This document shows positions 41,022-60,928 of a stretch of 64,000 nucleotides of DNA, in pieces. The stretch lies in assembly GCA_965140345.1 (NCBI GenBank), contig OZ223202.1, forward strand, positions 50,093-114,092, read 5' to 3'. The notes beneath the pieces are model-generated. The model did not search any database. It was not told the DNA's origin and saw only the letters and a program-made list of their open reading frames with translations. The translations under genes and the position numbers were made by a program. The stretch's first letter is position 1. Every line of letters begins with the position of its first letter. This DNA is from Candidatus Kapaibacterium sp. GTDB lineage: Bacteria > Bacteroidota > Ignavibacteria > Kapaibacteriales > UBA2268.

Positions 41022-41027
41022 TTTGCT

Positions 41028-41058: not shown

Positions 41059-41169
41059 GACAATTTTTATATAATGTTTTGAAATAAACTGCGACATAAT
41101 GTGACCTATTAAAACATATCTTAGTATAATAGATAATTCTTGTATCATTTTCGTATGCTCAGGAGTCGT

Positions 41170-42120
41170 ATGGAAAATCAAATAAATTTGTCGCAAATCA
41201 AGTCTGCTTTATTTGGAGTTGCTGTTGGAGATGCATTAGGTGTACCGGTTGAGTTTAAAAGCCGAAGTATATTAAAAAATAATCCTGTTCACGAGATGCT
41301 TGGATATGGTACACATAATCAACCCAAAGGTAGCTTTTCAGATGATACATCACTTACTTTATGTCTTGCAGAAGCTCTGACTAAAGATTTTGATCTTGAA
41401 GAAATAGCTCATTATTTTCTCAGATGGTATCACGAAGGCTTTTGGACAGCTAACGGAAATGTATTCGATATTGGTAATGCTACTCTCGATGCCCTTTTCA
41501 GAATAAAGCAAGGACAACCTGCCTATAAAACTGGTGGAAGAGATGAAATGTCAAATGGGAATGGTTCCCTGATGCGAATTTTGCCTTTGGTGTTTTATAT
41601 CAATACTAAATCAATCGACGAAAAGTTTGATATTTGCAGAAAAGTTTCGTCTATAACGCATGGACATATACGTTCTGTTCTTGCTTGTTTTTATTATCTT
41701 GAATTTGCCAAAATAGCTTTGACAGGTATGGACAAACTTGATATTTATCATCTGCTTAAAAAGACAATACCAAGCTATCTATCAACTAAATCAATTAGTA
41801 AGACAGAAATCTCAAACTTTAACAGACTTCTGAAAGAAGATATTTATATGCTTGAATCTGAGGACATTCAAAGTAGTGGTTATGTCTTACATACTCTTGA
41901 AGCAAGTATATGGTGCATACTAAGAACTTCTAACTTTAAAGAGGCTGTTTTAACAGCTGTAAATCTGGGAGAAGATACAGACACAACCGGAGCTGTAACT
42001 GGTGGTTTAGCAGCTCTTTTATATGGTTTTGATAGTATCCCAATTGAATGGATTGAAGTGATTGCAAGAAAATCAGATATTGAAAATTTAGCTGAACGAT
42101 TGTATGCTAAGTTAATGTAA
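41170..42120 (+). CDS. ADP-ribosylglycohydrolase (DraG/ARH family)
   Basis: AVGDALG, SDDT, NGNGSLMR, GEDTDTTGAVTG motifs; AGGAG RBS. Confidence 0.95.
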   Translation: MENQINLSQIKSALFGVAVGDALGVPVEFKSRSILKNNPVHEMLGYGTHNQPKGSFSDDTSLTLCLAEALTKDFDLEEIAHYFLRWYHEGFWTANGNVFDIGNATLDALFRIKQGQPAYKTGGRDEMSNGNGSLMRILPLVFYINTKSIDEKFDICRKVSSITHGHIRSVLACFYYLEFAKIALTGMDKLDIYHLLKKTIPSYLSTKSISKTEISNFNRLLKEDIYMLESEDIQSSGYVLHTLEASIWCILRTSNFKEAVLTAVNLGEDTDTTGAVTGGLAALLYGFDSIPIEWIEVIARKSDIENLAERLYAKLM

Positions 42121-44354: not shown

Positions 44355-44859
44355 GCAAATCATGTTCTGAAAAATTACTATTGATTTTTCTATATTTATA
44401 TTGACGGGATTCTTTTTTTCTTTGGAGCAAGGTACAATACTTTAATACATCTGTATCTTGATTGTTTCTTACTAAAGAATACCAACTACTCAAATGATTC
44501 CAAGCAGGTGGTAAATTACTATGATTATTCAAAGGATCTACACTTGATAATAAACGTCTTAGGATTACTCTGTACAGATCTGGATGAATATATTCAGGAA
44601 GTAAATATGTCCAATCATGCTTTTTAGTAAATAGAAGGCATTCATCTAAATCATCGAACATAATTTCTTTTTGAATCCATTCCTCTTCATCATCTTTATT
44701 GATAGTTATTCCATTAGAAATTTTAAGGTACTTTTTTTGTTTGATCGGCTCAAGACTCCTATATACCTCTATGCCTCCACCCTCTGCTCCATAGGCAAGA
44801 AATATTTCCCAACCAACTTTGGACGAAAACTTATGGGTAGAGCTAACATCACTTTCCAT
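44355..44859 (-). pseudogene. Hypothetical gene, 5' part, interrupted by IS256
   Basis: AGGAG RBS; the track ORF 44326-44859 reads into the IS terminal repeat. Confidence 0.7.
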
Positions 44860-45048: not shown

Positions 45049-45519
45049 TTATTTTACAGTTTCGTCAAATCCCTTAAAACCACTGTCATGTGAAGATAAA
45101 AGAGTATAAATCAAATCGTCCTTACTGCCAAACATGAGCTGAATATATTTAAGAATTTTATCTTCTGTTGTCTTCTCTTTGTCTAATAGCACAACTATTT
45201 TTCCATATGTCTCTTCACGGTATTCATTGGCTCGTTCTTTTAAATCAATTTTGTACAAACTAACAGTTGCGTCAGGATTAACTATTACAGTAGTGAAGCT
45301 TGAGCAAGATAAATCCTCTAATATATGGAAATATTTAAGTTTCTCATCTTCAAATTGCCAAAAATAAGAAATGAATGACATCATACCATCATAATACATT
45401 GCATTCCTAATAGCTTCACGAACCTGAGTTTCACACCATTCATAATGCTCAACGAAAGCATCAAAATCATGTTCGTACGCTTTACGCAACTGTTCAATAT
45501 TTTTGATTTTTTGGGGCAT
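45049..45519 (-). CDS. Hypothetical cytoplasmic protein
   Basis: 156-aa ORF 24 bp downstream of the envelope operon, same strand. Confidence 0.65.
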   Translation of the reverse strand: MPQKIKNIEQLRKAYEHDFDAFVEHYEWCETQVREAIRNAMYYDGMMSFISYFWQFEDEKLKYFHILEDLSCSSFTTVIVNPDATVSLYKIDLKERANEYREETYGKIVVLLDKEKTTEDKILKYIQLMFGSKDDLIYTLLSSHDSGFKGFDETVK

Positions 45520-45543
45520 GTATTAAATATTACAACTATAGCA

Positions 45544-47280
45544 TTATTTAGTAGTATAGAATTGAATTTTAAAAAAGTTTTCTAACAATTCATTAGATTC
45601 AAGTATTAATTGGCATTTAGTTTTAGGCAACTCCAGTTGATCTATAACTAATTCATATTTATCTTTGGTTTCAGTTTTAATTTCTATAATACTATTTTGT
45701 TGAATATTAGCTAGAATATTTTTTAAAGATATTTTAGAATTCTCTAATGAAGCTAAGTCACCTTCTATAGTATAAATGTGTTTATTTGTATTCTCAATAG
45801 CAATAGGAATATTTACAGAACATATTTGTTTATTACCATTAGAATACTCTATAACTACTTCACATTTTAAACCATTAGTATTATTCAAATAAAAGTGATC
45901 AAAATCAACAAAAGAGATTTTCATTTGCTTAGTATCTGTGAAATTTTCTTCGTACAATGTATTGTAGGTTGTTCCATTTATATTATCTAAAGGGGATTGA
46001 ATTTTGACAAAGCAGTTTTTAATTTGTAAAGTATCTTGAATAGTTAACACAATTGAGTTGTCAGTAATTTTATAAATATCATAGATTCTATCTACTACAT
46101 AATCGCAATTTTTAGCAGACAATATTATTTCCTTTAAATTATTATTGGTTTGAAGTATAGGTTTATGCCCGTAGTTCTTATAAATATGATTGGATATTTT
46201 ATAGATTTTCTCAGTTATCGATGCAATATTGGGATACATTATCCTCAAGCTTTCTTCATCGCTCTTTTCTTGCATGATAAAATATAATAAATCATCTTTT
46301 ACATCCAAATACTCTAAGACATATCCTTGCTTAAACTTACTTGGCACATGAATAATCTCTTTTAGATCGGTGGGTTCAATTCTATTGTTTAAAGAAAAAT
46401 ATTTGTTTTGATGGTAGCTTTGGAGATGCAATATTGAATCTTCTAATGTACCTAGCATTTTATATTTCAGGTGTGGTAATTTTATTTTATAAGGTATTAC
46501 ACCACCTCCACCTCCACTTCCTATTACTCCTCTGTTGGTGTCTATTTTATTCAAAGCAAGCTCAATACTAAATGACACTCCGGAAACACTCCCTTCAATA
46601 TCTTCAAAATTTAGAATATTACTAATATTTGTTGAAGCTTTAAGAACAAACCTCAAATCTATATTATTTGAAAAAGGCAATTTATATGCTACACCTAACT
46701 CTGCAATAGCAAAGTTATGGAATTTGTCACCGAAACTTACTTCATTAGGAATATCCGGAATAAAATTTTGGTTTTGAATCTCTGATTTCACAAGATAATC
46801 TGTTGATAAATTTAGTTTATATCCAAAGTCAAATAACATTGATAAATTAGGGTAGAATAATTCGAATTCCCCCCCCAACGACAAGCCAAGATCATACATC
46901 ACTAAGTTTGTTTTATTCCACATCTCTATATCTTCCAATTCTCCATTATATGCATAACCAATAAAATCAAAGGTTTCCTTCTGTGCACTGAAATTGGAAT
47001 ACGAAATAGATGCTTTCAATTTTGGATTGTTTAGAAAGCTAAAAATATCACGTAGGGGATGTAAATAATCTATATATAATCCAAACTCTTTAGCAGTTAA
47101 AGAATTATCAGATGAATTATTTATGTGATTGTAAGTATTCGGTGCAAGACCTGAACTAAACAAACTATAACCATAAGTTAGCCCACCACCAAAAGAATAA
47201 GATACAGTATCACTATTTTCAGTAGCTATTGAATATCCAAAATTTAAACAAAAGACGAGCAGAAAGATAATATTTCTCAT
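45544..47280 (-). CDS. Outer-membrane beta-barrel protein with degenerate OmpA-type C-terminal region
   Basis: Signal peptide, ~220 aa of amphipathic strands, Gly-rich linker, then region resembling the C-half of 49502-51820. Confidence 0.6.
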   Translation of the reverse strand: MRNIIFLLVFCLNFGYSIATENSDTVSYSFGGGLTYGYSLFSSGLAPNTYNHINNSSDNSLTAKEFGLYIDYLHPLRDIFSFLNNPKLKASISYSNFSAQKETFDFIGYAYNGELEDIEMWNKTNLVMYDLGLSLGGEFELFYPNLSMLFDFGYKLNLSTDYLVKSEIQNQNFIPDIPNEVSFGDKFHNFAIAELGVAYKLPFSNNIDLRFVLKASTNISNILNFEDIEGSVSGVSFSIELALNKIDTNRGVIGSGGGGGVIPYKIKLPHLKYKMLGTLEDSILHLQSYHQNKYFSLNNRIEPTDLKEIIHVPSKFKQGYVLEYLDVKDDLLYFIMQEKSDEESLRIMYPNIASITEKIYKISNHIYKNYGHKPILQTNNNLKEIILSAKNCDYVVDRIYDIYKITDNSIVLTIQDTLQIKNCFVKIQSPLDNINGTTYNTLYEENFTDTKQMKISFVDFDHFYLNNTNGLKCEVVIEYSNGNKQICSVNIPIAIENTNKHIYTIEGDLASLENSKISLKNILANIQQNSIIEIKTETKDKYELVIDQLELPKTKCQLILESNELLENFFKIQFYTTK

Positions 47281-47290
47281 TCTCTTCTCC

Positions 47291-49486
47291 TTATCTGACT
47301 ACAAAGTGGGAATTAAAATTTCTATTTCCTGAAGTAACATGCAAATAGTAAACACCAGGTATGAGATTGAAATCAACCATTGGTAAAACTTCTGTTCCGG
47401 TTGATTGGAGATCGTTCAATTCAACCATTACTTGCCCCAGTTGGTTTATAATTCTTAAGCTTGTAATTTTCTCTATTTGCTCGTCAAGTTGAATATTAAT
47501 ATAATTTGAAGCAGGATTTGGAGAAATCGTAATATTATCTGTACTCTTTATAGATAGATTGAATGGTTGAATTGTATTGACTTCAACAGAATCAGTTTTT
47601 AAGAACGAAATATTATCAATAAATGCTCTTGAATACAATGTAACGTAGGAAATAGAGTCATCGTCAAGTAAAACGATAAATCCAATTTGATCTTTATCTT
47701 CGACATTAGATAATAAGCCGTACTGTGGTAAATTATTTTCTCGGTATTCTTCAAAATCATGTGTAAAACAGTACAAATCGCGAATATTATATGTAACTTG
47801 GTTAAATATTTCACCATTACAATCTATTTCTGATTCGATATCTACATAAATTGTGTCATTTATATAGTATTTGGTTTTCACATTTTTCAACGTTACCATA
47901 CACTGATATTCAAATGTAGAAGGTACTAGTGATATTTGTGAAGTTTCTTCAAAATAGGATTCAATTACTTCCTTTGTATAGAAATCTTTATGTTGACATT
48001 CAAATGTAAATTCATCTAATAGATACGGCAAACTGAATTGACATAGACCTTCTGCATCTGTAAAAGAAGTTGGACTTGGTTGCAGATAATCATTTATAAG
48101 TTTGATTTCTACATTTTCTATATCCATAGAATCACAATAGCTCATTGTGTGTACTTTGTAAATGTATTTTTTACTTGAATCTTCACTCATACAATAAGTT
48201 AAATTTGAAAGATTTTCAAATACAGAAATAGTTGTATCCAAATCTACATACCCATCTGACTCTAATAGTATATTATAATTTCCTTTAACAATACCTTCAA
48301 ACTCAAACTGCCCTTTTGGATTTGAAAAATTATCACTGTATTGTTTCGTAGGTATTTTCAAATTAGTAAGAGTAATTTTAAAATCTTCAATGATATTCCC
48401 ATTTTTACATACAGATAGATAACCAGAAATATCAGCTTCTTCAACTGTTTCTTGCTTAATTTGGAGACAATATACACCATCATCTGTAGCCAAATAGAGC
48501 CTATTATTTAAGGAATCCAATACGGAGTCATTTATTTGTTTTGGAACTATTACTGAATCATACTGATGAAATGATAGACTAGAACTATCAAAGATGTATA
48601 TATCACCTTCACTGTTAAACACAAAGATTTCATTATTGAATTTCTTAACGTGGGTCAAACTTGAATGGTTAGCATCAATTTCTAATTCTGTCCAAAAATA
48701 TTTATCCCCAGTAATTTGATACTCTCCTCTAAAAACAATTGGAGTTTTTGAATCATTATCCATACCTACTACAAATACATATTTTCCAACACTTTCTAAT
48801 GAGACCACTGTATAATCGACAGATAACAATCCACTCCATACGCCATCTAAATAGTTTAGGACAGATCCATCTTCTGAATTTCCATCTATATCAGGATATG
48901 GCTTTGCAGAAAATAGAATCTTATCCTGATGATCAAGAATATCAAAAAAATCGTAGTATGTTATAGGATAATCAGAACCATCTCTAATCATATTAGGATT
49001 AGAAAAATCATATTCCATACTATAAATATATCCACCTTCCCAATCGCTTGTGCCATACATGGTTATAAACAACAAATCATTATATGACATTATATCTTTT
49101 AGGAATACATAACTTTCTGAACCAAATTCTTCTTCAAATGAAGCAAGTTTTTTGAAGTTACTTTTTAATCTCCACAACGTAGAATATTCATAATATGTTG
49201 GCCACATTCCAAGATTAACACTACCGACCAATAGCTGATTCTTGATACATCGGACCATCGTAACTTTATTATCTTGAAACTCTCTTAAACTCCAAGTTAA
49301 GGTTTCAGATAACGATGAAGCGTAAAGCCCCTGTTCAGTACCTGCAACTAAGTTATTATCAATAATATCTATCGAGTATATCTTTTTATGTAAACCAGAA
49401 CCACTCTCATTTCTAACAAGCTCATATTCGAAACTAAAGCTTTCATTACATATTATAAATAAGAAAAATGCTATAAAATATCGCAT
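47291..49486 (-). CDS. T9SS-secreted protein: beta-propeller + carboxypeptidase-regulatory-like domains + CTD
   Basis: AGTEQGLY / LATDDGVY propeller motifs; NPKGQFEF and TDAEG domains; ISPNPASNYINI...PGVYYL CTD. Confidence 0.8.
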   Translation of the reverse strand: MRYFIAFFLFIICNESFSFEYELVRNESGSGLHKKIYSIDIIDNNLVAGTEQGLYASSLSETLTWSLREFQDNKVTMVRCIKNQLLVGSVNLGMWPTYYEYSTLWRLKSNFKKLASFEEEFGSESYVFLKDIMSYNDLLFITMYGTSDWEGGYIYSMEYDFSNPNMIRDGSDYPITYYDFFDILDHQDKILFSAKPYPDIDGNSEDGSVLNYLDGVWSGLLSVDYTVVSLESVGKYVFVVGMDNDSKTPIVFRGEYQITGDKYFWTELEIDANHSSLTHVKKFNNEIFVFNSEGDIYIFDSSSLSFHQYDSVIVPKQINDSVLDSLNNRLYLATDDGVYCLQIKQETVEEADISGYLSVCKNGNIIEDFKITLTNLKIPTKQYSDNFSNPKGQFEFEGIVKGNYNILLESDGYVDLDTTISVFENLSNLTYCMSEDSSKKYIYKVHTMSYCDSMDIENVEIKLINDYLQPSPTSFTDAEGLCQFSLPYLLDEFTFECQHKDFYTKEVIESYFEETSQISLVPSTFEYQCMVTLKNVKTKYYINDTIYVDIESEIDCNGEIFNQVTYNIRDLYCFTHDFEEYRENNLPQYGLLSNVEDKDQIGFIVLLDDDSISYVTLYSRAFIDNISFLKTDSVEVNTIQPFNLSIKSTDNITISPNPASNYINIQLDEQIEKITSLRIINQLGQVMVELNDLQSTGTEVLPMVDFNLIPGVYYLHVTSGNRNFNSHFVVR

Positions 49487-49501
49487 CTGATTTACTTCCT
49501 T

Positions 49502-51820
49502 TTACTTACCGGTACATTCTATCGGAATAAACATCTGAGTAGAAACATATCTACTATACATTCTACCCTCAGGTAAATTATTGTCTATATATTTCGGTGC
49601 TATATCTTCTCCAAAACCTTCTGTTCGTTTCACTTCAGCAACTGCTCCTTTATCATCTATAATGTTGTCAATTTCTTTTTCTATAGTTTTAGATCTTTTA
49701 AGAGAAATTCTTTTATTTTCAGAATCTCCACCTATTCTACATGTGTGCCCCATAACATAAAAATACGCTCCATAAGGAAACTCGTCAAAGTTTTGAGCTA
49801 TCTTGCTAAACATAAAATTGCTATTTATTTCTGCGAATAAAGTTTTTGTCTTTCCCATTGGGAACAATGATAAATCAAAGTATTCTACTTCTCTTCCATC
49901 AAGACATTCTCTTCTAATTTTTTCAATAGTATTTTGAATGACATTTACTTTTTTCACTCTTGTGCTGCATTTCTTAGTTTTGGCTTCGTCAAGATAAGCA
50001 ATAAGTTGAACAGAGATATTATCAGTTCCAGAAATCATCCTTTGCCCTAAATCAGGATCAAATGTAATTTTAGCAGCAATCGGAAATTCGACGTATTCGA
50101 TTCCATGATTTCCATACGCAATGTTGGTATTGATAAGTTCACCATCTTTGAAGAAGTTTACTTCCCAAGAATACACATTTTCTGCTTCAATTATATCAAC
50201 ATAAGTCCTAATTGTTGGGGGATCTGCCTCATAAGTAATAGTTGAGTAGGTGTAGGGGTAGAGTAATTCCTCATCTTCACTAACAATTTCTACTCTTTGA
50301 TATTCTTCAATTGCATCTTTAACCGTTAAAATTCTTGGGCCATCATAATTTTTAGCATTTATTTCAATGAATCCTTCAGGTATATTGCCAGTTGTAACTA
50401 AATATTTCTTTACTGCTTCTGCTCTGCTTTGGGATAGAGATAGGTTGTTCTTCTCATTTCCTTTACCGTTATTCATACCAATTAGAGTGATTTTAGAATT
50501 AGATTTTTTGTGCCATCTTTCAATGAGAATATTCAACAAATCATGGTATACATCCAACCTAGAATATGTCTTTACATATTCAAACATTCTATTATTGGTT
50601 AACTCACTTGTAGAACGTCTGTAGTATCTATTAGGTAAATCAAATGACGCTTGTTCAAAGAAAATATAAGGTATTAGGGGAACATAGTTATTAAGAGGTC
50701 TTTCCCAAATAGTTAATTCAGGTTGATATGTTTCTTCCTTTTTTGAGTTTACACCTCTTACTTCTAGAGACATATTAAGATCACAATCTTCTAAATCATC
50801 GTTATAAAAGACTATAGTATCTTCTAACTTGTTATTATATAAAGAATCTTTGCACAAAGTGATGGTAACCTTATGCTTCCCATTAGTAATTCCCTGATAA
50901 GTAATTTCATAGTATGAATTCATTCTCTTATAAATATCTAAGAACACATTGTTAAAATCAGAAGTATTATAAATTTGATAATACTTACCACCTGTTCTTT
51001 CCGCTATATATTTCAATCTATATGAATCAACATTATATCCAAATCCGACTGTAAATACTTTTACATCATTATCAATTGCATCTTGTAGCATTTTTTGTAA
51101 ATTGATATTTGAGGAATTATCATAACCATCAGTTATAGCAATTATGTATTTCTTATTTGATTTGGGTTTTAAATTTGCAATACCAAGTTCAATTCCATCA
51201 TATAGAGCAGTAGATTTGCCATATCCAATTAAACCATTTTTCGTAAATTTTTGTTTGATATAAGCTTTATCAGAAGAAAATTCTAATTCCTGATTATAAT
51301 AATTATCGAACTTGATGACTGCAAATTCGTCATTATCTTCTTTCAAATCTGTAACATTTAGAAATGATTGTTGGATTTGGATTGCACGATATTCTCCTAT
51401 GGAACCACTATGATCTAAAACAAAAGAGATTGAATAGTTGCCAATTTCTGGCTTATAAAGCTCTCTTATATTGACTTGGTTAATTTTGCGACCATTATCA
51501 ACAATATCGCAAATTTTGTAACCGTATTGTGAGAACACTCCTTCTATTAAGTTGAAATCCATATCCAAGACATGGCCATAAATCTTTATATTATTAATAT
51601 CACTTGCATCAACAGAAAATAGGTCTAAATTATTGGCTGTATTATTAGATTTAATGCCATTTAGCCATTGATAATTAGATTGTTTCGTAGAATCATCTTG
51701 AGTAATTCTTGAATCATCAGGAAACAAGGGAAAATCAAATTTTTCTTTTGTCGGAGGAGTTGTGACACAAGAAGATATAAAGATTAGTAGAAAAATAAAA
51801 AACAATATGGATCTTAACAT
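49502..51820 (-). CDS. Lipoprotein with VWA domain and two OmpA_C domains
   Basis: Lipobox ISSC; DHSGS, TALYDG, ITDG; NLSLSQSRAEAVKKYL and GHTCRIG..NKRISLKRS..PEGRMYSR. Confidence 0.85.
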   Translation of the reverse strand: MLRSILFFIFLLIFISSCVTTPPTKEKFDFPLFPDDSRITQDDSTKQSNYQWLNGIKSNNTANNLDLFSVDASDINNIKIYGHVLDMDFNLIEGVFSQYGYKICDIVDNGRKINQVNIRELYKPEIGNYSISFVLDHSGSIGEYRAIQIQQSFLNVTDLKEDNDEFAVIKFDNYYNQELEFSSDKAYIKQKFTKNGLIGYGKSTALYDGIELGIANLKPKSNKKYIIAITDGYDNSSNINLQKMLQDAIDNDVKVFTVGFGYNVDSYRLKYIAERTGGKYYQIYNTSDFNNVFLDIYKRMNSYYEITYQGITNGKHKVTITLCKDSLYNNKLEDTIVFYNDDLEDCDLNMSLEVRGVNSKKEETYQPELTIWERPLNNYVPLIPYIFFEQASFDLPNRYYRRSTSELTNNRMFEYVKTYSRLDVYHDLLNILIERWHKKSNSKITLIGMNNGKGNEKNNLSLSQSRAEAVKKYLVTTGNIPEGFIEINAKNYDGPRILTVKDAIEEYQRVEIVSEDEELLYPYTYSTITYEADPPTIRTYVDIIEAENVYSWEVNFFKDGELINTNIAYGNHGIEYVEFPIAAKITFDPDLGQRMISGTDNISVQLIAYLDEAKTKKCSTRVKKVNVIQNTIEKIRRECLDGREVEYFDLSLFPMGKTKTLFAEINSNFMFSKIAQNFDEFPYGAYFYVMGHTCRIGGDSENKRISLKRSKTIEKEIDNIIDDKGAVAEVKRTEGFGEDIAPKYIDNNLPEGRMYSRYVSTQMFIPIECTGK

Positions 51821-51863
51821 GACTTCTCCTTATTTCCTAATATTACATATTTAACTATGCACG

Positions 51864-54800
51864 TTATTTTTTAAAGAATTGATAAAAGATTACATCATCT
51901 ACGATTGACTTTCTCATTTCAAATTTCGATCCATTTGAACGTAGATATGTTTCTCTCCTCATTGCTGCTTGTTCATCATCAGTTACATAGAAAGGTGTTT
52001 CATTTTCTATATCATTCAGTGCATCCAAATCTGTATTTGTACGAACTTCTGAATTATATTTTTTGATTTTCTGAGTAGCATTAGTTTTATTCTTTGATTC
52101 TATTTCTACATTACCTTTAGGATTACCTTCATCATCAAAAGTTATATTGATGGTCGAAGTCATATCAAAAATTTCATATTTAGTATTTTTTAGGATTTTA
52201 TTCTTAACATCTTCTGCTTCGTCTTTTGTACCTGACTTTAAGCTATATGGACCAACTAATACTAAAGTATATTGATATTTACCATCAGCATCATATATAG
52301 TTTTTAAGAATGGTTTTCTAGGTAGTATCATGTATGTATTGTATGCTCTTTTTTTGTCTCTAAGAGAACTAAATGTTTCATAATAAGATTTGAATGCTAA
52401 TTCTATTTTTGGAGTTTCAGCATTAATAATCTTTTTAGCATCTTTAATGTCTTTAACTTTAGCAATTGCTATATATTTTCCTGCATCAATGGAGAACTTA
52501 TTAAGAGGAATAGATTTGAGAGATATGGCGCCACTATCAATGCCTTTTACTGCTGTCAATCGTTTCATTTCTATTGAAGCTTCTTTATAATTTTTAAATC
52601 CATCTAGATAGACTCTATACTTCTTACCCGAAACAATATTTACAACATCGGTCTTGAATGTAACACCAGATTTTGTAGATAAATCATTTGCCAGATTTTC
52701 TGCTTCAGTTTTACTCTGAGGTGCACCAAAAGATATTATATAATCCAAATCCTCTTTATCTTCTACTCTCAAAGGATCTAATTTTTGCATCATCTCATCA
52801 GCTGTTATTTTGTAATCTTTGTCATTACAACAACCGTCATCTTTACCAAATTGACCATCAATGTATTGTAAGTTCTGCGCTACTATTCTTATTTTTCTAC
52901 TTTTGTGATAATCGTTCGGATTTTTAAAGCCTTCATTGGCTTCCAAAGTAGAATAACCACGTGCTAAAATTAAAATTTTCTTTTGCTTCATTATTTCAGA
53001 AATTTTTTCTTCAGGAAGTAGAAAGCCATCTTCTCCTATAAGCTCTTCAGGATCAAGCACCAATCCTTTGGAATAATATTCAGCAAATTTAGAGTTGTTT
53101 TTATTTAAAAAGTTGATCAACTCTTTATAACCAAAATATGCTCTAAGACCAGATAGTACATGATTGTATTTTCCTAACTCATCACCTCGGTCAATTGAAA
53201 CAAGTCTAAAACCCGGCTCACCTGCATTTTTCTGAAGCGAACCTGAGGCATAAGCAATATTATCTTCAGATTTGTTTTTAGGCCAGTACCAACCACGATT
53301 CACATGTCTGATATCACTCCAAGCTTCAACAGACAGCACAAATTTCGAATCTGCCTCAATTGAGTCAGCAGAAACATTATAAATTAGCTCATAAGCTGGG
53401 ATTAGTTTTTTATTTATTTCATTACTTATATAATTATATAAGGTATCAATCTTTCTTGATTGGCTATAATATTTATTATAGACCCAACTACTATAGGCTG
53501 AATCTTTTTGTAATAGTGTAGTATTCCGTGGATGTAACTCTATCCATTTTGCGCCGTCCCAGCTACTAACTGCTTCAGGTGGAATAATTTCAATATTATT
53601 TGCTGCGAAATCAAGTGGACGAGAATAGAAATTATTTAGCAAATTTATGTGTTTAGAAAAGTTTTTAGATGTGTTTACTTCCCAGTAACCAGTTTGGAAA
53701 AATGAGATAGTACTATCTATCCTACTAAAATAATCTGCAAATTCGTACACACAATCAGGAAGTTCTGTTTTGCATGGAGCCACCCAAATAGTATCTTTTA
53801 TACGACAGACAGGATTATCAGATGGAATAAAGACCATGTCATTTAAAGTAAGCTCTGACTTTGCTCGAATACCACTTTTCCCGGAAAAGAAGTTCTCTTG
53901 CTCAAAATCAGGAGGACATGGAGGATATTCCTCTTCAATTTTAGTACTTGTCCAATAGACCTCCCATTTTCTGTTTACTTCTTCTTTGATTTGAAGAATT
54001 CTAATATACTGTCCTAAATCATCTGGTGTATCAACTCGTTCTAAAGTTTGTTCACCATCTTCGTAGATAGTCACCTTTGAGTTAAATATTACAGTATCTT
54101 TTTCTTTGCTAAACTTTTTAGGATATTTTTTTATTATAGATTCCACTTTTGAAACTTCCACAGTATCAGGATAATATCTTGTAAAAGTTTGTGTCACTTC
54201 ATCTATTTTTAGAGTCTTTGTTGGATACGGGAAATAGCCCTTTAGCTTGCTGTTTTCTTGTTTATTACATGTAATACGATAATCTAATCTTTCGGCTGCT
54301 TCTGTATATGCTCTTACTTTATAATGTGTATTAAAGTCTATATCAGTTATTGCACTATTATCTTCGAATTCTTTTATTGTACCATTTGCATCTTCAATTT
54401 CAATGACAGGTAAAATATCTCTCTGAACCAGTTTGCCTGTGCTAACATCCATTACAACTACTTCAAGTTGTGGGTTGCTACTTGGGATTGCACACCCATA
54501 TATATTTAGCGCTTCATCGTAAAACTTTTGAGTTCTTACCGGTTTATCATGTGACCATAAAAATGCGCGGCCATCTTGATATTTATTAGTAGGGTTATTA
54601 TACCAGAATGGGTAGCGCTGGTTGTAGTTTGGATCATTAACCTTAAAAGCAACATTATGGTCACATGTTGAAACTAATTTTTCCTCTATAGGGCGCGGTG
54701 AACCTTCACACTCAAGCCTTACTGAACCATCTTTGATTTCTCTTTTTTGTATGTCAATTTGATAAATTTGAAATTTTGAATCTTTGCTTTTTTGAGAAGC

Positions 54801-55694
54801 ATACATCAAAAATTTCTCAGTTGGATCTATCCTTGGAGTTTCGTGGCTATATTCTGTATTGATAGCTGAAACAAATTTAGGTTTTGTCCATTTCCCATTA
54901 TGCTCTTTATATGAGTAATAAATATCTCCTGTCCCTTTTGCTTTTTTTGAATCAGCATTAATTCTGGTAGAAGTAAAGAACATGTGTCGCCCATCTGATG
55001 AGACTGTAGGATGAGATTCCCATGTTAATTCCTGAGATACCGGCTCTAATATTTGATTAGGATTATCCCAGCTACCATCTTTTTGTCTTGTTAGAGTCCA
55101 AATATTTAGATATTGCTTACCACTTAAATCAATTGCATTATCAATCAGCTTTTGAGCTGAAATAAACATTGTATCTCCAACTATCCAAACAGATCCTTTG
55201 TTTAAGTCATTGAATTTACGAACCTGTTCTGTAGATTTTGATCCAAGAACTGTTGTCACCTCTAAAACTTTACAAGAATTAGGATCCCATCCTTCTGAAG
55301 GACAATAACCTTTCTCAGGGTCAAGCTCTCTCTTGATTGAGTATATCTGAGTATAGTGATTACTTATCTCACCACTATTTTGTTCTGTCATTAAGGTATC
55401 TCTAGAGCTGACAAACCACAATGTTTCTTTAAGTGGGTTATGCTTATCTATTTCTATATAAGCAGCTTCATCCTTCCAAGCATCCAAATCAAAAACATTT
55501 CTAAGAGAAAGTCCTTCCCCCAACTCACTACTACTATTAATTGGCGGGGCTAACATTGATGGAACTCCATCGGAACAACAGCCATATGTTGGTTCCAAAG
55601 GAAGGTTTGACAAATCCTCTTTCTCTTTCACTTCAGGTGTTTTGCAAGCAAATAGCCCAATAAAAAGCAATGATATTAATATTCTATTTTTCAT
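51864..55694 (-). CDS. Large lipoprotein with PD40 repeats, divergent OmpA-like domain and SPOR-like domains
   Basis: Lipobox LFAC; WESHPTVSSDGRHMFFTSTR; VEAWSD...NHVLSGLRA; KKYRVYLDGFKNYKEA. Confidence 0.72.
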   Translation of the reverse strand: MKNRILISLLFIGLFACKTPEVKEKEDLSNLPLEPTYGCCSDGVPSMLAPPINSSSELGEGLSLRNVFDLDAWKDEAAYIEIDKHNPLKETLWFVSSRDTLMTEQNSGEISNHYTQIYSIKRELDPEKGYCPSEGWDPNSCKVLEVTTVLGSKSTEQVRKFNDLNKGSVWIVGDTMFISAQKLIDNAIDLSGKQYLNIWTLTRQKDGSWDNPNQILEPVSQELTWESHPTVSSDGRHMFFTSTRINADSKKAKGTGDIYYSYKEHNGKWTKPKFVSAINTEYSHETPRIDPTEKFLMYASQKSKDSKFQIYQIDIQKREIKDGSVRLECEGSPRPIEEKLVSTCDHNVAFKVNDPNYNQRYPFWYNNPTNKYQDGRAFLWSHDKPVRTQKFYDEALNIYGCAIPSSNPQLEVVVMDVSTGKLVQRDILPVIEIEDANGTIKEFEDNSAITDIDFNTHYKVRAYTEAAERLDYRITCNKQENSKLKGYFPYPTKTLKIDEVTQTFTRYYPDTVEVSKVESIIKKYPKKFSKEKDTVIFNSKVTIYEDGEQTLERVDTPDDLGQYIRILQIKEEVNRKWEVYWTSTKIEEEYPPCPPDFEQENFFSGKSGIRAKSELTLNDMVFIPSDNPVCRIKDTIWVAPCKTELPDCVYEFADYFSRIDSTISFFQTGYWEVNTSKNFSKHINLLNNFYSRPLDFAANNIEIIPPEAVSSWDGAKWIELHPRNTTLLQKDSAYSSWVYNKYYSQSRKIDTLYNYISNEINKKLIPAYELIYNVSADSIEADSKFVLSVEAWSDIRHVNRGWYWPKNKSEDNIAYASGSLQKNAGEPGFRLVSIDRGDELGKYNHVLSGLRAYFGYKELINFLNKNNSKFAEYYSKGLVLDPEELIGEDGFLLPEEKISEIMKQKKILILARGYSTLEANEGFKNPNDYHKSRKIRIVAQNLQYIDGQFGKDDGCCNDKDYKITADEMMQKLDPLRVEDKEDLDYIISFGAPQSKTEAENLANDLSTKSGVTFKTDVVNIVSGKKYRVYLDGFKNYKEASIEMKRLTAVKGIDSGAISLKSIPLNKFSIDAGKYIAIAKVKDIKDAKKIINAETPKIELAFKSYYETFSSLRDKKRAYNTYMILPRKPFLKTIYDADGKYQYTLVLVGPYSLKSGTKDEAEDVKNKILKNTKYEIFDMTSTINITFDDEGNPKGNVEIESKNKTNATQKIKKYNSEVRTNTDLDALNDIENETPFYVTDDEQAAMRRETYLRSNGSKFEMRKSIVDDVIFYQFFKK

Positions 55695-55707
55695 TTTTGT
55701 TTCCCGA

Positions 55708-58470
55708 TTATCTTATTAATGGATATACAATTCTGAAGTTCATCGTTGCACGTCCTGATAAATCTTCATCATCTATTTCGCTTATAATTAGCAGTGCAGC
55801 ATTACATGGATAGTATTCATTGTTACCTTCAGTTGATTTATAATAGCTCTTTGATGACCAGATTAGATATACATTACCTGATTCAGGATAATTTGAACCA
55901 GTTCCATCTAGTTTTGGAGAAGGTATAGGTGGGGTAACTTTACTTTTCCAAGTACCTACATTTTCGTCTGGCTCTACAATCCAATTCGCATTACTAAATG
56001 TTTTCTTATACCAATTCTTATCCCAATCAGGATTAAAACCCAAAAGATCAAAAGGTAAACTAGTTGATATTCCAAAAATCGCTTTGCGCAGATCATCCAT
56101 TACATCTATATTATCTACATCGTTTAGATTATCAAAACGCCATATAGGTACTCTTGTCATCCTATCAAATTTACTACCTTTCGCAAGGAAGATAGAAATC
56201 GGGTTAAAATCAAGATTATCAGGCTTGTAATCATTATTAATTATTCCGTCATAATCAGGATTATAAGCGTCAATATAAAAGCTGTTCTTTCCTCCACTAA
56301 TTCCACAATCCAATTCTGGTCCATCATACTCATCATCATTATTATCAGCTTCCATATTATGTGATGTATAACCATATCCGTCAGGCATTAGCTCATCAAT
56401 TTTACAAGCATCGAATGCAGGTTTTTTCTTATTAGCTGTACTGTGGCTATAAGAAGTAATCTGGCGAGAATCTGATATTTTTACTTCTGTTATACTTGCC
56501 TTTACGTTGATCACACGATAACAAATACTATCTAATTCTAATAAATTATCTACTGAAGCAATAAAAAACCTAAACCAGTACTCATCGTCATGTGATTTGA
56601 TGAGCTTATTAATTAAATGTTTACTTAATGTCGGTGCTTCAAAAGAAACCGTTAAGGATTTATGTTGTCCTTTCTTGTTCAGTGTAAAAGCATCTAAAGG
56701 TAGAATTTTTTTGCCGTCTAATTCGAAATTGAAGTACTCCTGATCTAAAACTGCCTCAGCAACTTCCTGAGTGCTAGTACCAATTGGTAGCATTCCTACT
56801 ACAAAAGTTTTAGAGTCGTCCTCGTTACATACAATTTTATCATCATCATTCAATAGGTATTCATAGCTTATATCAAAGCCAAATTCTCTTTCAGAGTATT
56901 TAATCCAATCGCAAACCTCATAATTTGAAGGAAAAGCATCAAAATCACAGAAGAATTCTTCATTAGGATTACCAATTGATAAATCTATTAAGTCACCATG
57001 TCTCATTTGTCTAATTGCTTCAAACTTCGTGAAGTCATCAAATCTATCTGTCACTTCTGTACCATCAGGAACTTCTCTTAAATATACCTGTATATCATTG
57101 TCTTTTATTACAGCTGCTTCAGGACACAAATCGATACATCTTTGACCTTCTAGTATCACATAAAACGAGCAAGCTTCCCCTGGTTCATTTGAATTACTTA
57201 CACTAATATCAAACTTAAATGTATCTAAAGAAATACTTGGAAGATTGGCTCTGCTATCATTCTCTAAACCAAACCTAGCGTCAAATTTGAAGTAATCTTT
57301 AGCATTGAAGATACTTCCTACTGAAATATTATCTAAAGTCCAATCATTGAACATAATATTATTAGGGATTCTAGAATAGCCCCAGTCAAAACTTGAATTA
57401 AGATTAGGATACTCAATAAATAAAGAGTCAGGATCATTCCCTCTTCCGACTCTTGAAATTCCTTTTATTTCAACATCACAATCTTCTCCAATCAAGTCAG
57501 ACCAGCGGAAAAGTTGGAAAGTCATATTTTTATGGGATTCATCTTGTTCCAAGATTGGTATTGCAGGTCTTGAGCCGAGAGGGAAATAACCTCTATTGTC
57601 GTAGATATCATCATCTTCAAATGGACAATCACATACTACTTCTTCTATGCAGAAATCCCATTTAATAGTCCAAGTAGCAGTATTATTTGTTCCCAAGCAT
57701 TTAATAGGCAGTTCTATTTGGCCTTGATAGCAGCCAACTTCATCTGTAAGAATTTCAAATTCTATATCTAATTGATCAGAATAATTTAGTCGAGCACTAT
57801 TTCCTTCAACATTACTCATATTTATTTCTGGAGCTTGGTCCCTAAAGATAGTAGAAATTATTCTAATTTTGTCAGAGTCAAATGTTGGTGATTCAGGGTT
57901 AAGCCCTTCTATTTCTATTTCTTCACTTGTGTTTGATCTTACTGATGCAGTAAAGGAGTGATAATGTTTACCAATAGGAGAATTTATCTCTAATAAATCA
58001 CCTAATTCTTTTTGTTTCCCAAATAACATAATTGTTTCAATGTTGACTAAGGAATCACATCTAACTGTTTCAACAGGCTTACATTGATCAAAGCAAAGTA
58101 TTACAACTGTATCTTTACATAAATAATCAGTATTAGCAACTTCTCTATCGTTATTCCAATATCCATCAAATTTCAAATCATTTACACCACAGCCACTGTT
58201 TGGAATTGTTATAACTCCATCCCCATTATCATCAGTTTTGAACTTTAATATCTCAGTTCTTTCTTTACTTCCATCTTCAGCAGGAATAGAAACTATTACT
58301 TCTGCATTAGAAGCTATATTGTCACATTCTGTATCACAGCCTTTCCAAACTGTTTTCACGTAAATATTAATATCATCACCACAAGGTTCTGATACATCTT
58401 CGTTACAAGCTGAGAGAAACATAAAAAGGCATGTCATAAAAGCAATAACTATATAATATGTTTTTTTCAT
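55708..58470 (-). CDS. Large acidic Cys-rich beta-rich lipoprotein
   Basis: Lipobox LSAC; KTDDNG prealbumin-like motif; many Cys; AGGGG RBS. Confidence 0.75.
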   Translation of the reverse strand: MKKTYYIVIAFMTCLFMFLSACNEDVSEPCGDDINIYVKTVWKGCDTECDNIASNAEVIVSIPAEDGSKERTEILKFKTDDNGDGVITIPNSGCGVNDLKFDGYWNNDREVANTDYLCKDTVVILCFDQCKPVETVRCDSLVNIETIMLFGKQKELGDLLEINSPIGKHYHSFTASVRSNTSEEIEIEGLNPESPTFDSDKIRIISTIFRDQAPEINMSNVEGNSARLNYSDQLDIEFEILTDEVGCYQGQIELPIKCLGTNNTATWTIKWDFCIEEVVCDCPFEDDDIYDNRGYFPLGSRPAIPILEQDESHKNMTFQLFRWSDLIGEDCDVEIKGISRVGRGNDPDSLFIEYPNLNSSFDWGYSRIPNNIMFNDWTLDNISVGSIFNAKDYFKFDARFGLENDSRANLPSISLDTFKFDISVSNSNEPGEACSFYVILEGQRCIDLCPEAAVIKDNDIQVYLREVPDGTEVTDRFDDFTKFEAIRQMRHGDLIDLSIGNPNEEFFCDFDAFPSNYEVCDWIKYSEREFGFDISYEYLLNDDDKIVCNEDDSKTFVVGMLPIGTSTQEVAEAVLDQEYFNFELDGKKILPLDAFTLNKKGQHKSLTVSFEAPTLSKHLINKLIKSHDDEYWFRFFIASVDNLLELDSICYRVINVKASITEVKISDSRQITSYSHSTANKKKPAFDACKIDELMPDGYGYTSHNMEADNNDDEYDGPELDCGISGGKNSFYIDAYNPDYDGIINNDYKPDNLDFNPISIFLAKGSKFDRMTRVPIWRFDNLNDVDNIDVMDDLRKAIFGISTSLPFDLLGFNPDWDKNWYKKTFSNANWIVEPDENVGTWKSKVTPPIPSPKLDGTGSNYPESGNVYLIWSSKSYYKSTEGNNEYYPCNAALLIISEIDDEDLSGRATMNFRIVYPLIR

Positions 58471-58484
58471 TTTGATTCCCCTAA

Positions 58485-59702
58485 TTAAAAAGTTAGACCT
58501 AATCTTAAAAATAATTGGTTAGATGTTCTGAACGGATTTTTTCCATCTAAACCTGTACATTCAGCACAGAAGTTATTTTCAGGTAGCGGAAAGTGAGTTA
58601 CTCTAAATCCACCATCTATGGAAAAATCCATACATTTCGTCATCCACCAGTCGTACCCAATTCCTATACCAAGCATATATGCATAAACATCATCACAGTT
58701 TCCACTTGTGCAAATAATAGGAACATCATCAAATGGAGCCCAAACAGTACCTATATCTGCGAAAATATACCATGCGTCGCAGTCATTTATTTTTGGAAAA
58801 ATCCGAGGCCAAGCTTCATCATCAAATGTATATCGTGGGTGGATTGTGATAGGAATAAAAATAGATCCATCGACAGGATAAAACCCCGTCATTAAACCTA
58901 TTTGAAAATTATCTCTATCCATATTTTCAAATCCAAATAAACTGGAAGCATTAAACAAGAATGACAACTCCAAACCGGCAGTAAAGTCAGTTCCACCACG
59001 TTCGAAACCAAAAGTTTCCTTATAATAAGTTTTACCCCCGTCAGGTCCCGGATAAAAAATGGAATCCTGAGCACCAAATCGATAAGCTCCCATAAGTCTA
59101 ATTTCAAACTTATCAAGGAATCCGGTCTTTTCATTTAAACAATATCTATTTCTATCGCAGCAATAACATTCTTCATCAACAACTAATGAATCTGGTATAG
59201 GTTTTATATCTGAATCAGCCTTAGAAGTCAAAAGAAAAATATTTTTTGGTGTAAATCTTGAATCCAACTGAGGAAATTTTATAGTGAAACGATTTTTTTC
59301 TCTATATTCACTTTCAGGATTAAATACTGCATCTCCATATTCCCTAAAAATTTTCCTGTTTAAAAATATTACTTCAACAGTATAGACTCCATCATGTAGC
59401 GAAACCGTTGGCATGACTGGAGAAGTAAACAAAAAATTGCGATTCTTAGCTTCATTAGCTTCTTTTTTCACAAGAGGATTAGATGATTCAATTACAAAGT
59501 AAGAAATACTATCTCTGAACTCATTTCGTAATTCTAATTCCCAAAGTCTTTTGTTTGCAAGTAAAAGATCTGCATTTTTTTGATTCCCATCACAATTATT
59601 GACTTTTTCACTACCACAATCAACAGTTCGACATGACTGCAGAAAAGACATAACAATAGCCAAAATGGCTATGCCTAAAAACCTAAATTGATTTCTTTGC
59701 AT
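58485..59702 (-). CDS. Cys-rich lipoprotein with C-terminal beta-barrel-like domain
   Basis: ATG 59702 after GGAG; lipobox LQSC; CYCC and CAEC motifs; terminal LRLGLTF. Confidence 0.72.
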   Translation of the reverse strand: MQRNQFRFLGIAILAIVMSFLQSCRTVDCGSEKVNNCDGNQKNADLLLANKRLWELELRNEFRDSISYFVIESSNPLVKKEANEAKNRNFLFTSPVMPTVSLHDGVYTVEVIFLNRKIFREYGDAVFNPESEYREKNRFTIKFPQLDSRFTPKNIFLLTSKADSDIKPIPDSLVVDEECYCCDRNRYCLNEKTGFLDKFEIRLMGAYRFGAQDSIFYPGPDGGKTYYKETFGFERGGTDFTAGLELSFLFNASSLFGFENMDRDNFQIGLMTGFYPVDGSIFIPITIHPRYTFDDEAWPRIFPKINDCDAWYIFADIGTVWAPFDDVPIICTSGNCDDVYAYMLGIGIGYDWWMTKCMDFSIDGGFRVTHFPLPENNFCAECTGLDGKNPFRTSNQLFLRLGLTF

Positions 59703-59950
59703 TATAGCTCCACTTATATAAAAATATTCTAATTTATAAATTAATACCATAGTCTTATTCGGTAAGGATTTCAGTTTCAATATAATTGAACTACATATAA
59801 CACACAAACTTTTTTTCGGATTTTATTCATTTATACAATATTACCATTCTTTTCTTGCATGACCTTCTTCTAATTTTAACAATTATATCTAAATTTGTAT
59901 GTACTTTTACGTGTAATACTTATTTCTGGCGACTAACTTTTGGAGGGGCA

Positions 59951-60928
59951 ATGCTAGCACAATTTGAAATTCATACAGAGTCTATTCAAAACAGAAAAGC
60001 CTCTAACTATAATAATGGCGATAGTTTGGAGAAATACGTAACTGAAAATAAGGACTTTGTTATACTTGTTCTTTCGGATGGAGTAAGCTCTACTGATAAA
60101 CATTGGATCGCTTCTGAGATGATTTGTAAAGATATTGTGAAATTCATCTCTGTTCATAATATGCAAAATATCGAAATGGAAAAATTGATTTTAGATGCGA
60201 TTTCTAATAGCAATAGTAACGTACTTAATTCTGATATTTGTAGTGGTGCTTTAGCAACGTTGGTTTTAGTCGTCTGGGATGTTAATAATGATTTTATTTA
60301 TTGGTCATCTATTGGAGATTCTAACCTTTGTTTACTTAAAAATACAAACGAATTATTAACACTTTCTGTGGAAGAAACTGCTGTAGAAATGATTATTGAA
60401 TACGGCAAACCAAAAATGATAGATGGTGCCCCGGCAACACGAAAACTTTTAACAAATGCTATGGGTTCTGCAATTACTAAAATAAAAGTACACAAGCATG
60501 ACTTCCTGCCGGGCGAAGCCTTATTCCTTACAAGTGATGGATTTATGGAAGCTCTGTCTGCTCCGTTTGATGCTATTCAACAAACAATAAATAAGTCTGA
60601 TTTAGATAAAAGTTTCATAGAATTATGTAACGATGTTCGAGCAAATAATTATGATGACGCTTCGATTATTATTTTAAGACGCAATGACAGAGACGAAAAT
60701 CATATTCCGGCTCACCTTTCCAATACTTCAATCATTAAAACTTTAATAGAATCTATTTTAAATGAAGATATATTCTCTATTGAAACTTGTATCGAAAATA
60801 TTAAAGATCAAAATCTCTCTATTGGAAAAGCGAATTATTTGGAGCTTCTAAGTACTTTTCAGAAATCAAGAATGTCAAATAATAAAGAAGTTTGGTCGCT
60901 TCTGCAGCCTTTAGTGCGTTTTATTTAA
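59951..60928 (+). CDS. PP2C-family protein phosphatase
   Basis: NGD, LSDGVS, SIGDS, LTNAMG, LTSDG, DDASII motifs; GGAGG RBS before ATG 59951. Confidence 0.9.
   Translation: MLAQFEIHTESIQNRKASNYNNGDSLEKYVTENKDFVILVLSDGVSSTDKHWIASEMICKDIVKFISVHNMQNIEMEKLILDAISNSNSNVLNSDICSGALATLVLVVWDVNNDFIYWSSIGDSNLCLLKNTNELLTLSVEETAVEMIIEYGKPKMIDGAPATRKLLTNAMGSAITKIKVHKHDFLPGEALFLTSDGFMEALSAPFDAIQQTINKSDLDKSFIELCNDVRANNYDDASIIILRRNDRDENHIPAHLSNTSIIKTLIESILNEDIFSIETCIENIKDQNLSIGKANYLELLSTFQKSRMSNNKEVWSLLQPLVRFI

Follow-up and report, generated by a model that had tools for sequence, protein, structure and literature searches.

The surface protein PG1035 of Porphyromonas gingivalis is held by the barrel PorP, to which the lipoprotein PorE binds, according to the portions of PMC9143113 that deal with this complex. 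In the same portions, PorP is described as a 14-stranded barrel, and in Flavobacterium johnsoniae six porP-like genes are reported to adjoin porE-like genes. PorE (PG1058) is described as having an N-terminal TPR, a beta-propeller, a carboxypeptidase-regulatory-like domain, and an OmpA_C-like peptidoglycan-binding domain, and the structure of its C-terminal domain has been solved, according to PMC7192894. Here, we analyzed a 64,000-nucleotide stretch of the genome of Candidatus Kapaibacterium sp. (contig OZ223202.1, positions 50,093 to 114,092; hereafter the window), in which one locus invites comparison with this assembly. The locus occupies positions 45049-59702 of the window and consists of seven consecutive open reading frames (ORFs) on the minus strand, g1-g7, which code for proteins of 405, 920, 1276, 772, 731, 578, and 156 aa, respectively. 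Its core is a triad formed by g1 (58485-59702, minus strand), g2 (55708-58470, minus strand), and g3 (51864-55694, minus strand), three unnamed protein families joined by a strict gene order. The g1, g2, and g3 families have no Pfam or NCBIfam name. The triad occurs, among others, in Kapabacteria and Ignavibacteria, uncultured or barely cultured bacteria whose envelopes are known from sequence only.

Conservation of the g1-g2-g3 gene order

The g1 family alignment was scanned against one genome per species. It yielded 20 loci, which came from Kapabacteria, Ignavibacteria, and Prolixibacteraceae metagenome-assembled genomes (MAGs) and from some differently labelled records. Nineteen of these loci extend 2 kb or more past the g1 relative, and in all 19 a g2 relative comes directly downstream of it; L009, which had no such room, was left out of the count. 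Fifteen of these g2 relatives were identified by BLASTP from the window g2, and those of L013, L024, and L026 by a hidden Markov model (HMM) built without them, with E-values from 1e-195 to 4e-76. The g2 relative of L022 was found in a reading frame missed at first ORF picking (E 8.6e-90). A g3 relative came next in all 17 loci with room for it, and in L008 and L021 the g3 relative was cut by the contig end. A search for related loci with g3 alone found none. In L023 (6918-9346), two ORFs of 358 and 403 aa match the N- and C-terminal halves of the g3 relative, and a frameshift or a pseudogene is possible there.

The same order was observed beyond this set. A tblastn search of the congener G002 gave g1, g2, and g3 in order, with 63%, 43%, and 50% identity, respectively, and nothing for g4-g8. 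The three genes were also found in order in G020, which belongs to another genus (tblastn), in L006, from one genome of the same family, and in five of five further loci that were obtained as distant or partial g1 matches in the class survey. The genes that flank the triad vary between loci, and the two triad-bearing congeners do not share their triad neighbourhoods. Counterparts of g4-g7 were found neither in the congener locus nor in the 20, 1, and 5 other loci, apart from generic domain matches in L012 and L008. In their own genome, g1, g2, g3, g5, g6, and g7 are each present in a single copy. The real unit is g1-g2-g3, conserved and unnamed; g4-g7 are genome-specific additions that may be co-transcribed with it and lie outside the system.

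These results bear on the first-pass annotation of the window, in which all seven genes had been read as one operon for one envelope-spanning complex. The arrangement itself was described correctly: the seven genes are co-oriented on the minus strand at the coordinates given there, with gaps of 10-43 bp (14, 13, 43, 15, 10, and 24 bp from g1 to g7). The single complex did not hold, because only g1-g3 are conserved together and g4-g7 stand beside no other copy. The idea of four lipoproteins and a secreted cargo as one assembly falls with the placement of g4-g7 outside the conserved unit. A gene order conserved nowhere had been named as the outcome that would speak against the proposal; the g1-g3 order proved to be conserved in Kapabacteria, Ignavibacteria, and Prolixibacteraceae MAGs.

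The distribution of the triad was assessed at several depths. Among 1.84 billion protein representatives, the g1 profile had matches in 58 clusters (E ≤ 1e-3). A g1 match was present in 27 of the 201 genomes of the class sample; one family of the class had a g1 relative in 17 of 18 genomes, and the window's own family had none in the six genomes that represent it in this sample. In a phylum-wide sample of 401 genomes, the own genome was the sole match. With g2 as the query, three of 41 related genomes gave a match, the own genome counted. Overall, the triad is thus rare; one lineage has it fixed, and its occurrence in the others is patchy. It is accessory and probably transferable. A keyword-level literature search returned no description of it, which is not proof that the triad is unpublished.

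The predicted barrel lipoprotein g1

The g1 product is a 405-aa lipoprotein with its lipobox at Cys24, and this lipid Cys is near-invariant in the family. The ORF can be extended to a TTG at 59807, and the homologues begin near 59702. The N-terminal part of the protein is variable among family members. A cysteine motif, CxCCxRxRxC, is conserved at about residues 180-190, and so are the C-terminal 220 residues, which end in an aromatic residue (...LGLTF in the window). The AlphaFold model, built with a 42-sequence alignment, reached a predicted local distance difference test score (pLDDT) of 86.6 and a predicted template modelling score (pTM) of 0.73. It contains an alpha/beta domain at about residues 50-160, followed by eight long strands.

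The top Foldseek matches of the model were OprG, NspA, OmpW, OmpA, and the OprF barrel. In a Foldseek-independent comparison with VIA-align, the Z-scores were 14.9 for PagL (137 residues aligned), 14.8 for a small Legionella porin that belongs to the Dot/Icm machine, 14.6 for the OprF barrel, 14.0 for NspA, and 13.6 for OmpW, and each of these matches fell within residues 183-405. Over the whole barrel, g1 belongs to the 8-stranded fold of the OmpA/OmpW/OmpX/PagL type, and residues 183-405 are modelled as an 8-stranded OmpA/OmpW-type outer-membrane barrel. Since a barrel of eight strands is small, it is predicted to serve as a membrane anchor rather than a channel.

At the sequence level, g1 matched no family in Pfam or NCBIfam, and OMP_b-brl was found weakly in a few members of its family (E 0.005-0.08). 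The family profiles of g1, g2, and g3 had no meaningful match among PDB sequences. The ESM Atlas leads for g1, at 0.88-0.90, were Bacteroidota lipoproteins that have PEGA/CarboxypepD_reg together with autotransporter-beta or OMP_b-brl domains. The assignment of g1 to PorP/SprF was considered and rejected: no PF11751 or TIGR03519 match was obtained, and when the 42-sequence g1 family was compared with 26 PorP/SprF sequences in hhalign, the probability was 0.4%. Among the 20 g1 relatives, one matched PF11751, with an E-value of 0.039.

The cysteine-rich lipoprotein g2

The g2 product is a lipoprotein of 920 aa in which the lipid-bearing Cys22 is followed by N-E-D. It contains 26 Cys, of which 11 are invariant in a full-length alignment of 20 members. 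Its members share a conserved C-terminal domain with ...F/YRxxYP at the end. The structural model is almost all beta (pLDDT 67.6, pTM 0.46). Comparison of its parts with VIA-align indicated a prealbumin/CnaB-like domain at residues 31-132 (3e8v, Z 11.6; Gram-positive pilin and SdrD domains, Z 8-9) and ASH/PapD-like immunoglobulin (Ig) domains at residues 134-279 (VesB Ig domain, Z 10.0; CEP192 ASH, Z 8.3-9.6) and 448-660 (Z 7-8.5). The top Foldseek matches were arrays of Ig/ASH domains, and CFA/I pilins also occur among the matches. These comparisons indicate that g2 is a chain of Ig-like beta-sandwich domains. The window g2 had no match in Pfam, and its relatives gave weak ASH/HYDIN matches in eight of 19 cases and in five of the five distant ones. 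No ESM Atlas match was obtained at 0.9 or above. Type V pilin and HmuY-like folds, for which the g2 region had been proposed as a candidate, and the Mfa/Fim fold were absent from the 50 matches that Foldseek or VIA-align listed for the whole g2 model (pLDDT 67.6).

The position of g2 with respect to the outer membrane was approached through its N-terminus. In Bacteroidota, the export signal of surface lipoproteins is given, in the parts of PMC5080379 that define it, as K-(D/E)2 or Q-A-(D/E)2 directly after the lipid Cys. An acidic residue at position +2 from the lipid Cys was present in 19 of 20 g2 members. An acidic pair at +2,+3 was found in eight of the 20, including the window protein (C-N-E-D), and the exact K-(D/E)2 in five. 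Identity to the congener was 43% for g2, 50% for g3, and 63% for g1; RtcB and a BamA-like protein, in comparison, were 73% and 82% identical. An exposed protein that changes fast would be expected to show a value as low as that of g2, which is not proof of exposure. We place g2 tentatively at the cell surface because acidic residues follow its lipid Cys and because it diverges faster than its neighbours.

The propeller lipoprotein g3

The g3 product is a lipoprotein of 1276 aa with its lipobox at Cys17. In its N-terminal third, Pfam detected PD40, a TolB-like propeller, with 30.3 bits against a cut-off of 20.9. PD40 was found in 15 of 16 family members and was strong in all five short, distant variants. 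A SPOR domain (PF05036) at residues about 979-1055 scored 30.1 bits against a gathering score of 21 (profile match at 985-1055), which places the window protein within that family. A repeat check pointed to a possible, weak second SPOR at residues 1098-1153. SPOR scored above the cut-off in three of 16 g3 members (the window protein and two of its 15 relatives), reached E < 0.01 in five of 16, and was absent from all five short variants.

In the central region, about residues 655-945, the family consensus shows the OmpA-like motifs GYTD, NxxLSxLRA, and RRIEI. An hhalign comparison with the 14 OmpA domains of the own genome gave a probability of 89.3% and an E-value of 2.1e-6 over 29 columns, which run up to the GHTD motif and stop before a large insertion. 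The only PDB sequence match of the region was the C-terminal peptidoglycan-binding domain of MotB (E 0.37). The region is probably a divergent OmpA/MotB-like domain, to judge from these sequence comparisons. Pfam found no TPR in the window g3 or in its 15 and 5 relatives. CarboxypepD_reg occurred weakly after the propeller in two of the five short variants (E 1.5e-4 and 0.019) and was not found in the window g3. The TolB equivalog scored 15.4 bits against a cut-off of 343. The Cys of g3 is not followed by an acidic pair, and in six of 16 members the lipobox Cys is absent at the aligned position, as read from the alignment. A periplasmic location of g3 would fit both the absent acidic pair and the Cys-less members.

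The domain calls made earlier for these three proteins largely stand. g1 had been described as a Cys-rich lipoprotein/barrel, in agreement with Cys24 and the predicted 8-stranded C-terminal barrel, and g2 as a Cys-rich beta lipoprotein, in agreement with its 26 Cys and an almost all-beta model. For g3, PD40 and SPOR were recovered above their cut-offs, and the OmpA-like part was recovered in part (89% over 29 columns; MotB E 0.37). The further claim of a peptidoglycan-anchored, disulfide-rich assembly is supported in part, for g1-g3, which are predicted to be extracytoplasmic and Cys-rich and include, in g3, SPOR and a probable OmpA-like region; it is not retained for g4-g7.

Proposed function and alternative explanations

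We tentatively propose that g1-g2-g3 is a module that anchors a surface structure to the cell wall, in which the barrel would link a surface-displayed fibre to a peptidoglycan-bound periplasmic partner. The g2 protein would be flipped to the cell surface as an adhesin-like or fibril-like protein, and g3 would stay in the periplasm and bind peptidoglycan. The g1 barrel, together with its periplasmic N-terminal domain, would form the transmembrane link between them. Such a module would act like an OmpA divided over several proteins and extended by a surface arm, and the site of g2 would be tied to the wall. The mutual contact of the three proteins, the placement of g2 outside and of g3 inside, and the role of the barrel as the link are inferred, and lean on the parallel with PorE-PorP-PG1035. 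It is also conceivable, with rather less confidence, that the triad is an undescribed tripartite system for lipoprotein display with a lipidated 8-stranded barrel as a dedicated dock, a "split OmpA with surface arm". Kapabacteria, Ignavibacteria, and some Bacteroidia would be the groups in which such a system arose or among which it spread, and it would be near-universal in one family and mobile in others.

Several observations weigh against the proposed anchoring module. The surface exposure of g2 would follow from a short motif and an evolutionary rate, and it was in Bacteroidia and Flavobacteriia, rather than in Kapabacteria, that the export motif was defined. The confidence of the g2 model is middling, at the pLDDT and pTM given above. 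Pfam OmpA matched none of the 16 and 5 g3 members, so that the OmpA-like call lies below any curated threshold. SPOR is scarce in the g3 family, and wall binding through it would therefore not be family-wide. Physical contact among g1, g2, and g3 is likewise a deduction from the parallel named above. A complex prediction with full-length mature g1 and g2 of the shorter L006 orthologues scored 0.20 and 0.12 against a mark of 0.32, which speaks neither for nor against contact.

A different role is assigned to the triad if it is the class's stand-in for PorP, PorE, and their cargo; g1 would then collect a secreted or surface protein at the system for type IX secretion (T9SS), and g3 would fix it to the wall. 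The g3 lipoprotein has a PorE-like propeller and a probable OmpA-like layout, with a weak CarboxypepD_reg in two of five short variants, and porP-like genes lie beside porE-like genes in F. johnsoniae, as reported in the portions of PMC9143113 cited above. The class would also have room for a stand-in: PorP/SprF was found in none of nine same-class genomes (the own genome included, and there also with TIGR03519) versus nine of 32 genomes of other classes, so the class seems, from these searches, to be without PorP/SprF. Besides SprA, the own genome codes for 150 or more type A sorting domains, and cargo genes are found close to the triad both in the window (g5) and at five other loci. However, cargo is so common in the genome that such proximity is expected by chance. 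The g1 family gave 0.4% against PorP/SprF and has eight strands rather than 14, and g2 is a lipoprotein for which no type B sorting domain was listed. The positive control of the PorP/SprF search, a Prolixibacteraceae genome with two PorP/SprF genes, carries the triad as well, so both occur in one genome. Finally, the triad was found in three of 41 relatives and SprA in 25 of 25. A T9SS-accessory platform, which the first-pass annotation had suggested, is therefore unlikely, given also the lack of PorP/SprF homology in g1.

If g2 remained in the periplasm, the trio could instead brace the outer membrane to peptidoglycan in the manner of Tol-Pal or OmpA, possibly at septa via SPOR. SPOR domains bind denuded septal glycan, and the combination of PD40, an OmpA/MotB-like region, and SPOR in g3, the OmpA-type 8-stranded barrel of g1, and the g1 and g3 lipoboxes without acidic residues are all consistent with such a tether. 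A housekeeping tether would not be expected to show the patchy distribution observed (27 of 201 genomes in the class sample, one of 401 in the phylum sample), the own genome already has 35 OmpA-domain matches, and SPOR is absent from most members of the g3 family. In addition, the acidic residue at +2 in 19 of 20 g2 proteins and their high divergence point outward, and we give the periplasmic tether little credence. A pilus-like polymer, with g2 as a pilin-like lipoprotein precursor that undergoes strand exchange as in type V pilins and g1 as the base, has in its favour that type V pilins are lipoproteins too, that the first g2 domain is CnaB-like (Gram-positive pilins, Z 8-9) with CFA/I pilins among the Foldseek matches, and that the C-terminal strand motif F/YRxxYP is conserved. 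Yet no type V pilin or Mfa/Fim fold was among the matches listed, the 700-920 aa of g2 far exceed known pilin sizes, each locus has one g2 gene and no paralogous tip or anchor subunits, and the surroundings of g2 contain no conserved gene for an usher, a sortase, or a protease; such a polymer is the most improbable of the explanations weighed here. Hardly more probable is the single envelope-spanning assembly of g1-g7, with its four lipoproteins, MIDAS, and secreted cargo. The co-orientation of the genes, the gaps of 10-43 bp, and the lack of a convincing internal terminator (5 sites versus 6.7 expected, none in the gaps) agree with it, as do the genes next to the triad at three other loci (VWA+OmpA in L012, OmpA in L014 and L023). 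Against it, g4-g7 have no counterparts at the other loci and no second genome has the seven-gene order, g6 is without any relative in the searches run, and the flanks of the triad are heterogeneous elsewhere. A false lead is thereby removed, as the seven-gene "complex" resolves into a conserved triad and unrelated local genes.

The local genes g4-g7

The g4 gene (49502-51820, minus strand) starts 43 bp downstream of g3 and lies outside the conserved unit. It codes for a 772-aa lipoprotein with VWA (59.6 bits) and OmpA (47.8 bits) domains in Pfam. A VWA plus two OmpA domains had been read in g4; VWA and one OmpA stand, and the second OmpA is weak (NCBIfam NF045788, Omp38, residues 672-759, E 1.9e-5). 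The own genome contains 13 paralogous matches to g4. One other locus, L012, has a VWA+OmpA gene upstream of the triad, and OmpA genes lie beside the triad in L014 and L023. The identity of g4 as BatA of the Bat aerotolerance system was considered and rejected, with NF047508 at 28.5 bits against a cut-off of 380 and neither a MoxR ATPase nor other Bat genes in the cluster.

The g5 gene (47291-49486, minus strand), also outside the conserved unit, codes for a secreted protein of 731 aa with a CarboxypepD_reg-like domain and a C-terminal T9SS type A sorting domain (TIGR04183, 37.5 bits against 23; PF18962, 32.8 against 27). The sorting domain agrees with the earlier description of g5 as a T9SS propeller protein; the propeller was not recovered, since the only related match was CNH at E 0.0024. 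By its sequence, g5 is predicted to be ordinary T9SS cargo. Type A sorting domains number at least 150 in the own genome (4.48 Mb), where 150 of 272 candidates were scored, and with such abundance the adjacency of g5 to the triad says little.

The g6 gene (45544-47280, minus strand) is an orphan that codes for 578 aa with a signal peptide. It gave no match in Pfam, NCBIfam, PADLOC, or PHROGs and no relative in 40 related genomes, and a word-based search of 5.8 billion clusters returned only g6 itself. The earlier reading of g6 as a barrel with a degenerate OmpA region found no counterpart in any of these family collections. The g7 gene (45049-45519, minus strand) codes for a 156-aa protein without a signal peptide or a family, and Pfam, NCBIfam, PADLOC, and PHROGs had no match for it. 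In Pfam and NCBIfam, no ATPase, TonB receptor, or enzyme domain was detected among the seven proteins, as the first-pass annotation had stated.

Genomic surroundings

Upstream of g1, the genes at 59855-60928 and 61033-63153 are transcribed divergently and code for a PP2C phosphatase and a TPR histidine kinase, respectively. In four congeners, which have 75-81 kinase matches per genome, only paralogues of the kinase (32-36% identity) and no orthologue were found. Two-component genes adjoin the triad in L011, L018, and L020 as well, and in L020 they include a divergent TPR kinase like that of the window. A two-component system may control the triad. Just upstream of the triad, L009, L012, L013, and L016 have genes for heavy-metal P-type ATPases or HMA-domain proteins, perhaps through common ancestry of these loci or through a link in function. 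In L010, L012, L014, L016, L017, and L019, the triad lies in records titled "uncultured Chromatiales" or "Hyphomicrobiales". Two of these records also have T9SS sorting-domain genes nearby (e.g., L019), and the titles seem at odds with the gene content.

Beyond g7, a gap of 189 bp is followed by an ORF of 177 aa (44326-44859) and an IS256 transposase (43081-44295). The 31-nt inverted repeats of the IS256 element are at 42842-42872 and 44319-44349, and the right one overlaps the 3' end of the 177-aa ORF, which may be truncated. At least nine copies of the element with 94-100% protein identity are present in the own genome; from these near-identical copies, the element was judged to have been recently active. 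Farther left, a tyrosine integrase gene (39359-40675; Phage_integrase and Arm-DNA-bind_5) overlaps an excisionase-like ORF of 121 aa (40656-41021; phrog_66), after which an ADP-ribosylglycohydrolase gene is the next. The region 39359-42120 may be the start of an integrative element to the left of the cluster.

The cluster itself showed no GC shift, no tRNA was found at it, and no repeats that bound it were found. It contained five terminator-like sites versus 6.7 expected, none of them within an intergenic gap, and 96 promoter-like sites versus 99.9 expected, which is the chance level. The borders of an island are not placeable, with the RtcB orthologue of a congener lying about 0.5 Mb away from the triad of that genome. 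PADLOC and PHROGs had no match for g1-g3 or g5-g8, and a defence or phage origin of the cluster is therefore without support from these sequence searches. The view of the cluster as island-borne thus agrees with the integrase, the excisionase-like gene, the adjacent IS256, and the patchy distribution; the lack of a GC shift, tRNA, and bounding repeats and the multicopy nature of IS256 speak against it. The term goes beyond what the evidence supports, and "accessory and probably transferable" is a fair description.

Two other parts of the window deserve mention. At 18743-28368, giant genes code for a 1548-aa protein with VWA, ASH/HYDIN Ig, and T9SS sorting domains and for a 1612-aa protein with many WD40 repeats. 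At 31675-36632, there is another run of five ORFs on the minus strand, the first of which codes for a 592-aa OmpA-domain protein; the rest have no family or weak HEAT matches.

Comparison with described systems

The triad resembles the PorP-PorE-cargo assembly, as far as the latter is described in the sources cited above, in the combination of a barrel, a putative surface protein, and a predicted periplasmic propeller lipoprotein with a probable OmpA-like end, and in the proximity of the barrel and PorE-like genes. Like PorE, g3 is a lipoprotein (Cys17) with a propeller, here of the PD40 type. The differences are equally evident. The g1 barrel has eight predicted strands rather than 14 and no detectable homology to PorP, and g2, a lipoprotein, has no type B sorting domain; CHU_C and TIGR04131 were not listed for g2 or for its 19 and 5 relatives. 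In contrast to PorE, g3 lacks TPR and has an added SPOR. The gene order of the triad is barrel, fibre, PorE-like protein, and the triad is accessory, whereas the T9SS is universal. PorE is required for type IX secretion, and the occurrence of the triad in three of 41 relatives, versus SprA in 25 of 25, argues against such a role for g3.

The g1 barrel is of the OmpA/OmpW/NspA fold, and the system as a whole would join an 8-stranded barrel to a wall-binding module, as OmpA does by fusion of its barrel to a periplasmic OmpA_C domain that binds peptidoglycan. Unlike in OmpA, the barrel and the wall-binding parts of the triad are separate proteins, and g1 is lipidated, has an extra N-terminal domain and conserved cysteines, and belongs to no sequence family. 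Tol-Pal, in which the TolB propeller goes with the OmpA-like lipoprotein Pal, is resembled by g3, a lipoprotein that pairs a TolB-type PD40 propeller with a probable OmpA-like region; however, no TolQRA genes lie beside g3, its TolB equivalog score is far below the cut-off, and its distribution is accessory. With the surface lipoproteins of Bacteroidota, g2 shares acidic residues right after the lipid Cys, but the partner barrel is not a transporter of the SusC/TonB type and the exact signal is present in only five of 20 members. Single g2 domains have the folds of Ig/CnaB adhesins and pilins (MSCRAMM SdrD, SpaA-type) and of ASH/PapD-like arrays, with Z-scores of 8-11.6. The likeness is one of fold only, as g2 has neither LPXTG nor a sortase nor sequence-family membership. 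By the comparisons made here, the triad belongs to none of these families; in function, it would come closest to an anchor of the PorP-PorE or split-OmpA type for a surface fibre. Its architecture parallels PorP-PorE anchoring, but with another barrel and with a lipoprotein as the putative displayed part. If the proposed function is true, the triad would represent a second, simpler way for a diderm cell to fix a large surface protein to its wall, and about 60 protein clusters now labelled "hypothetical" would gain a name.

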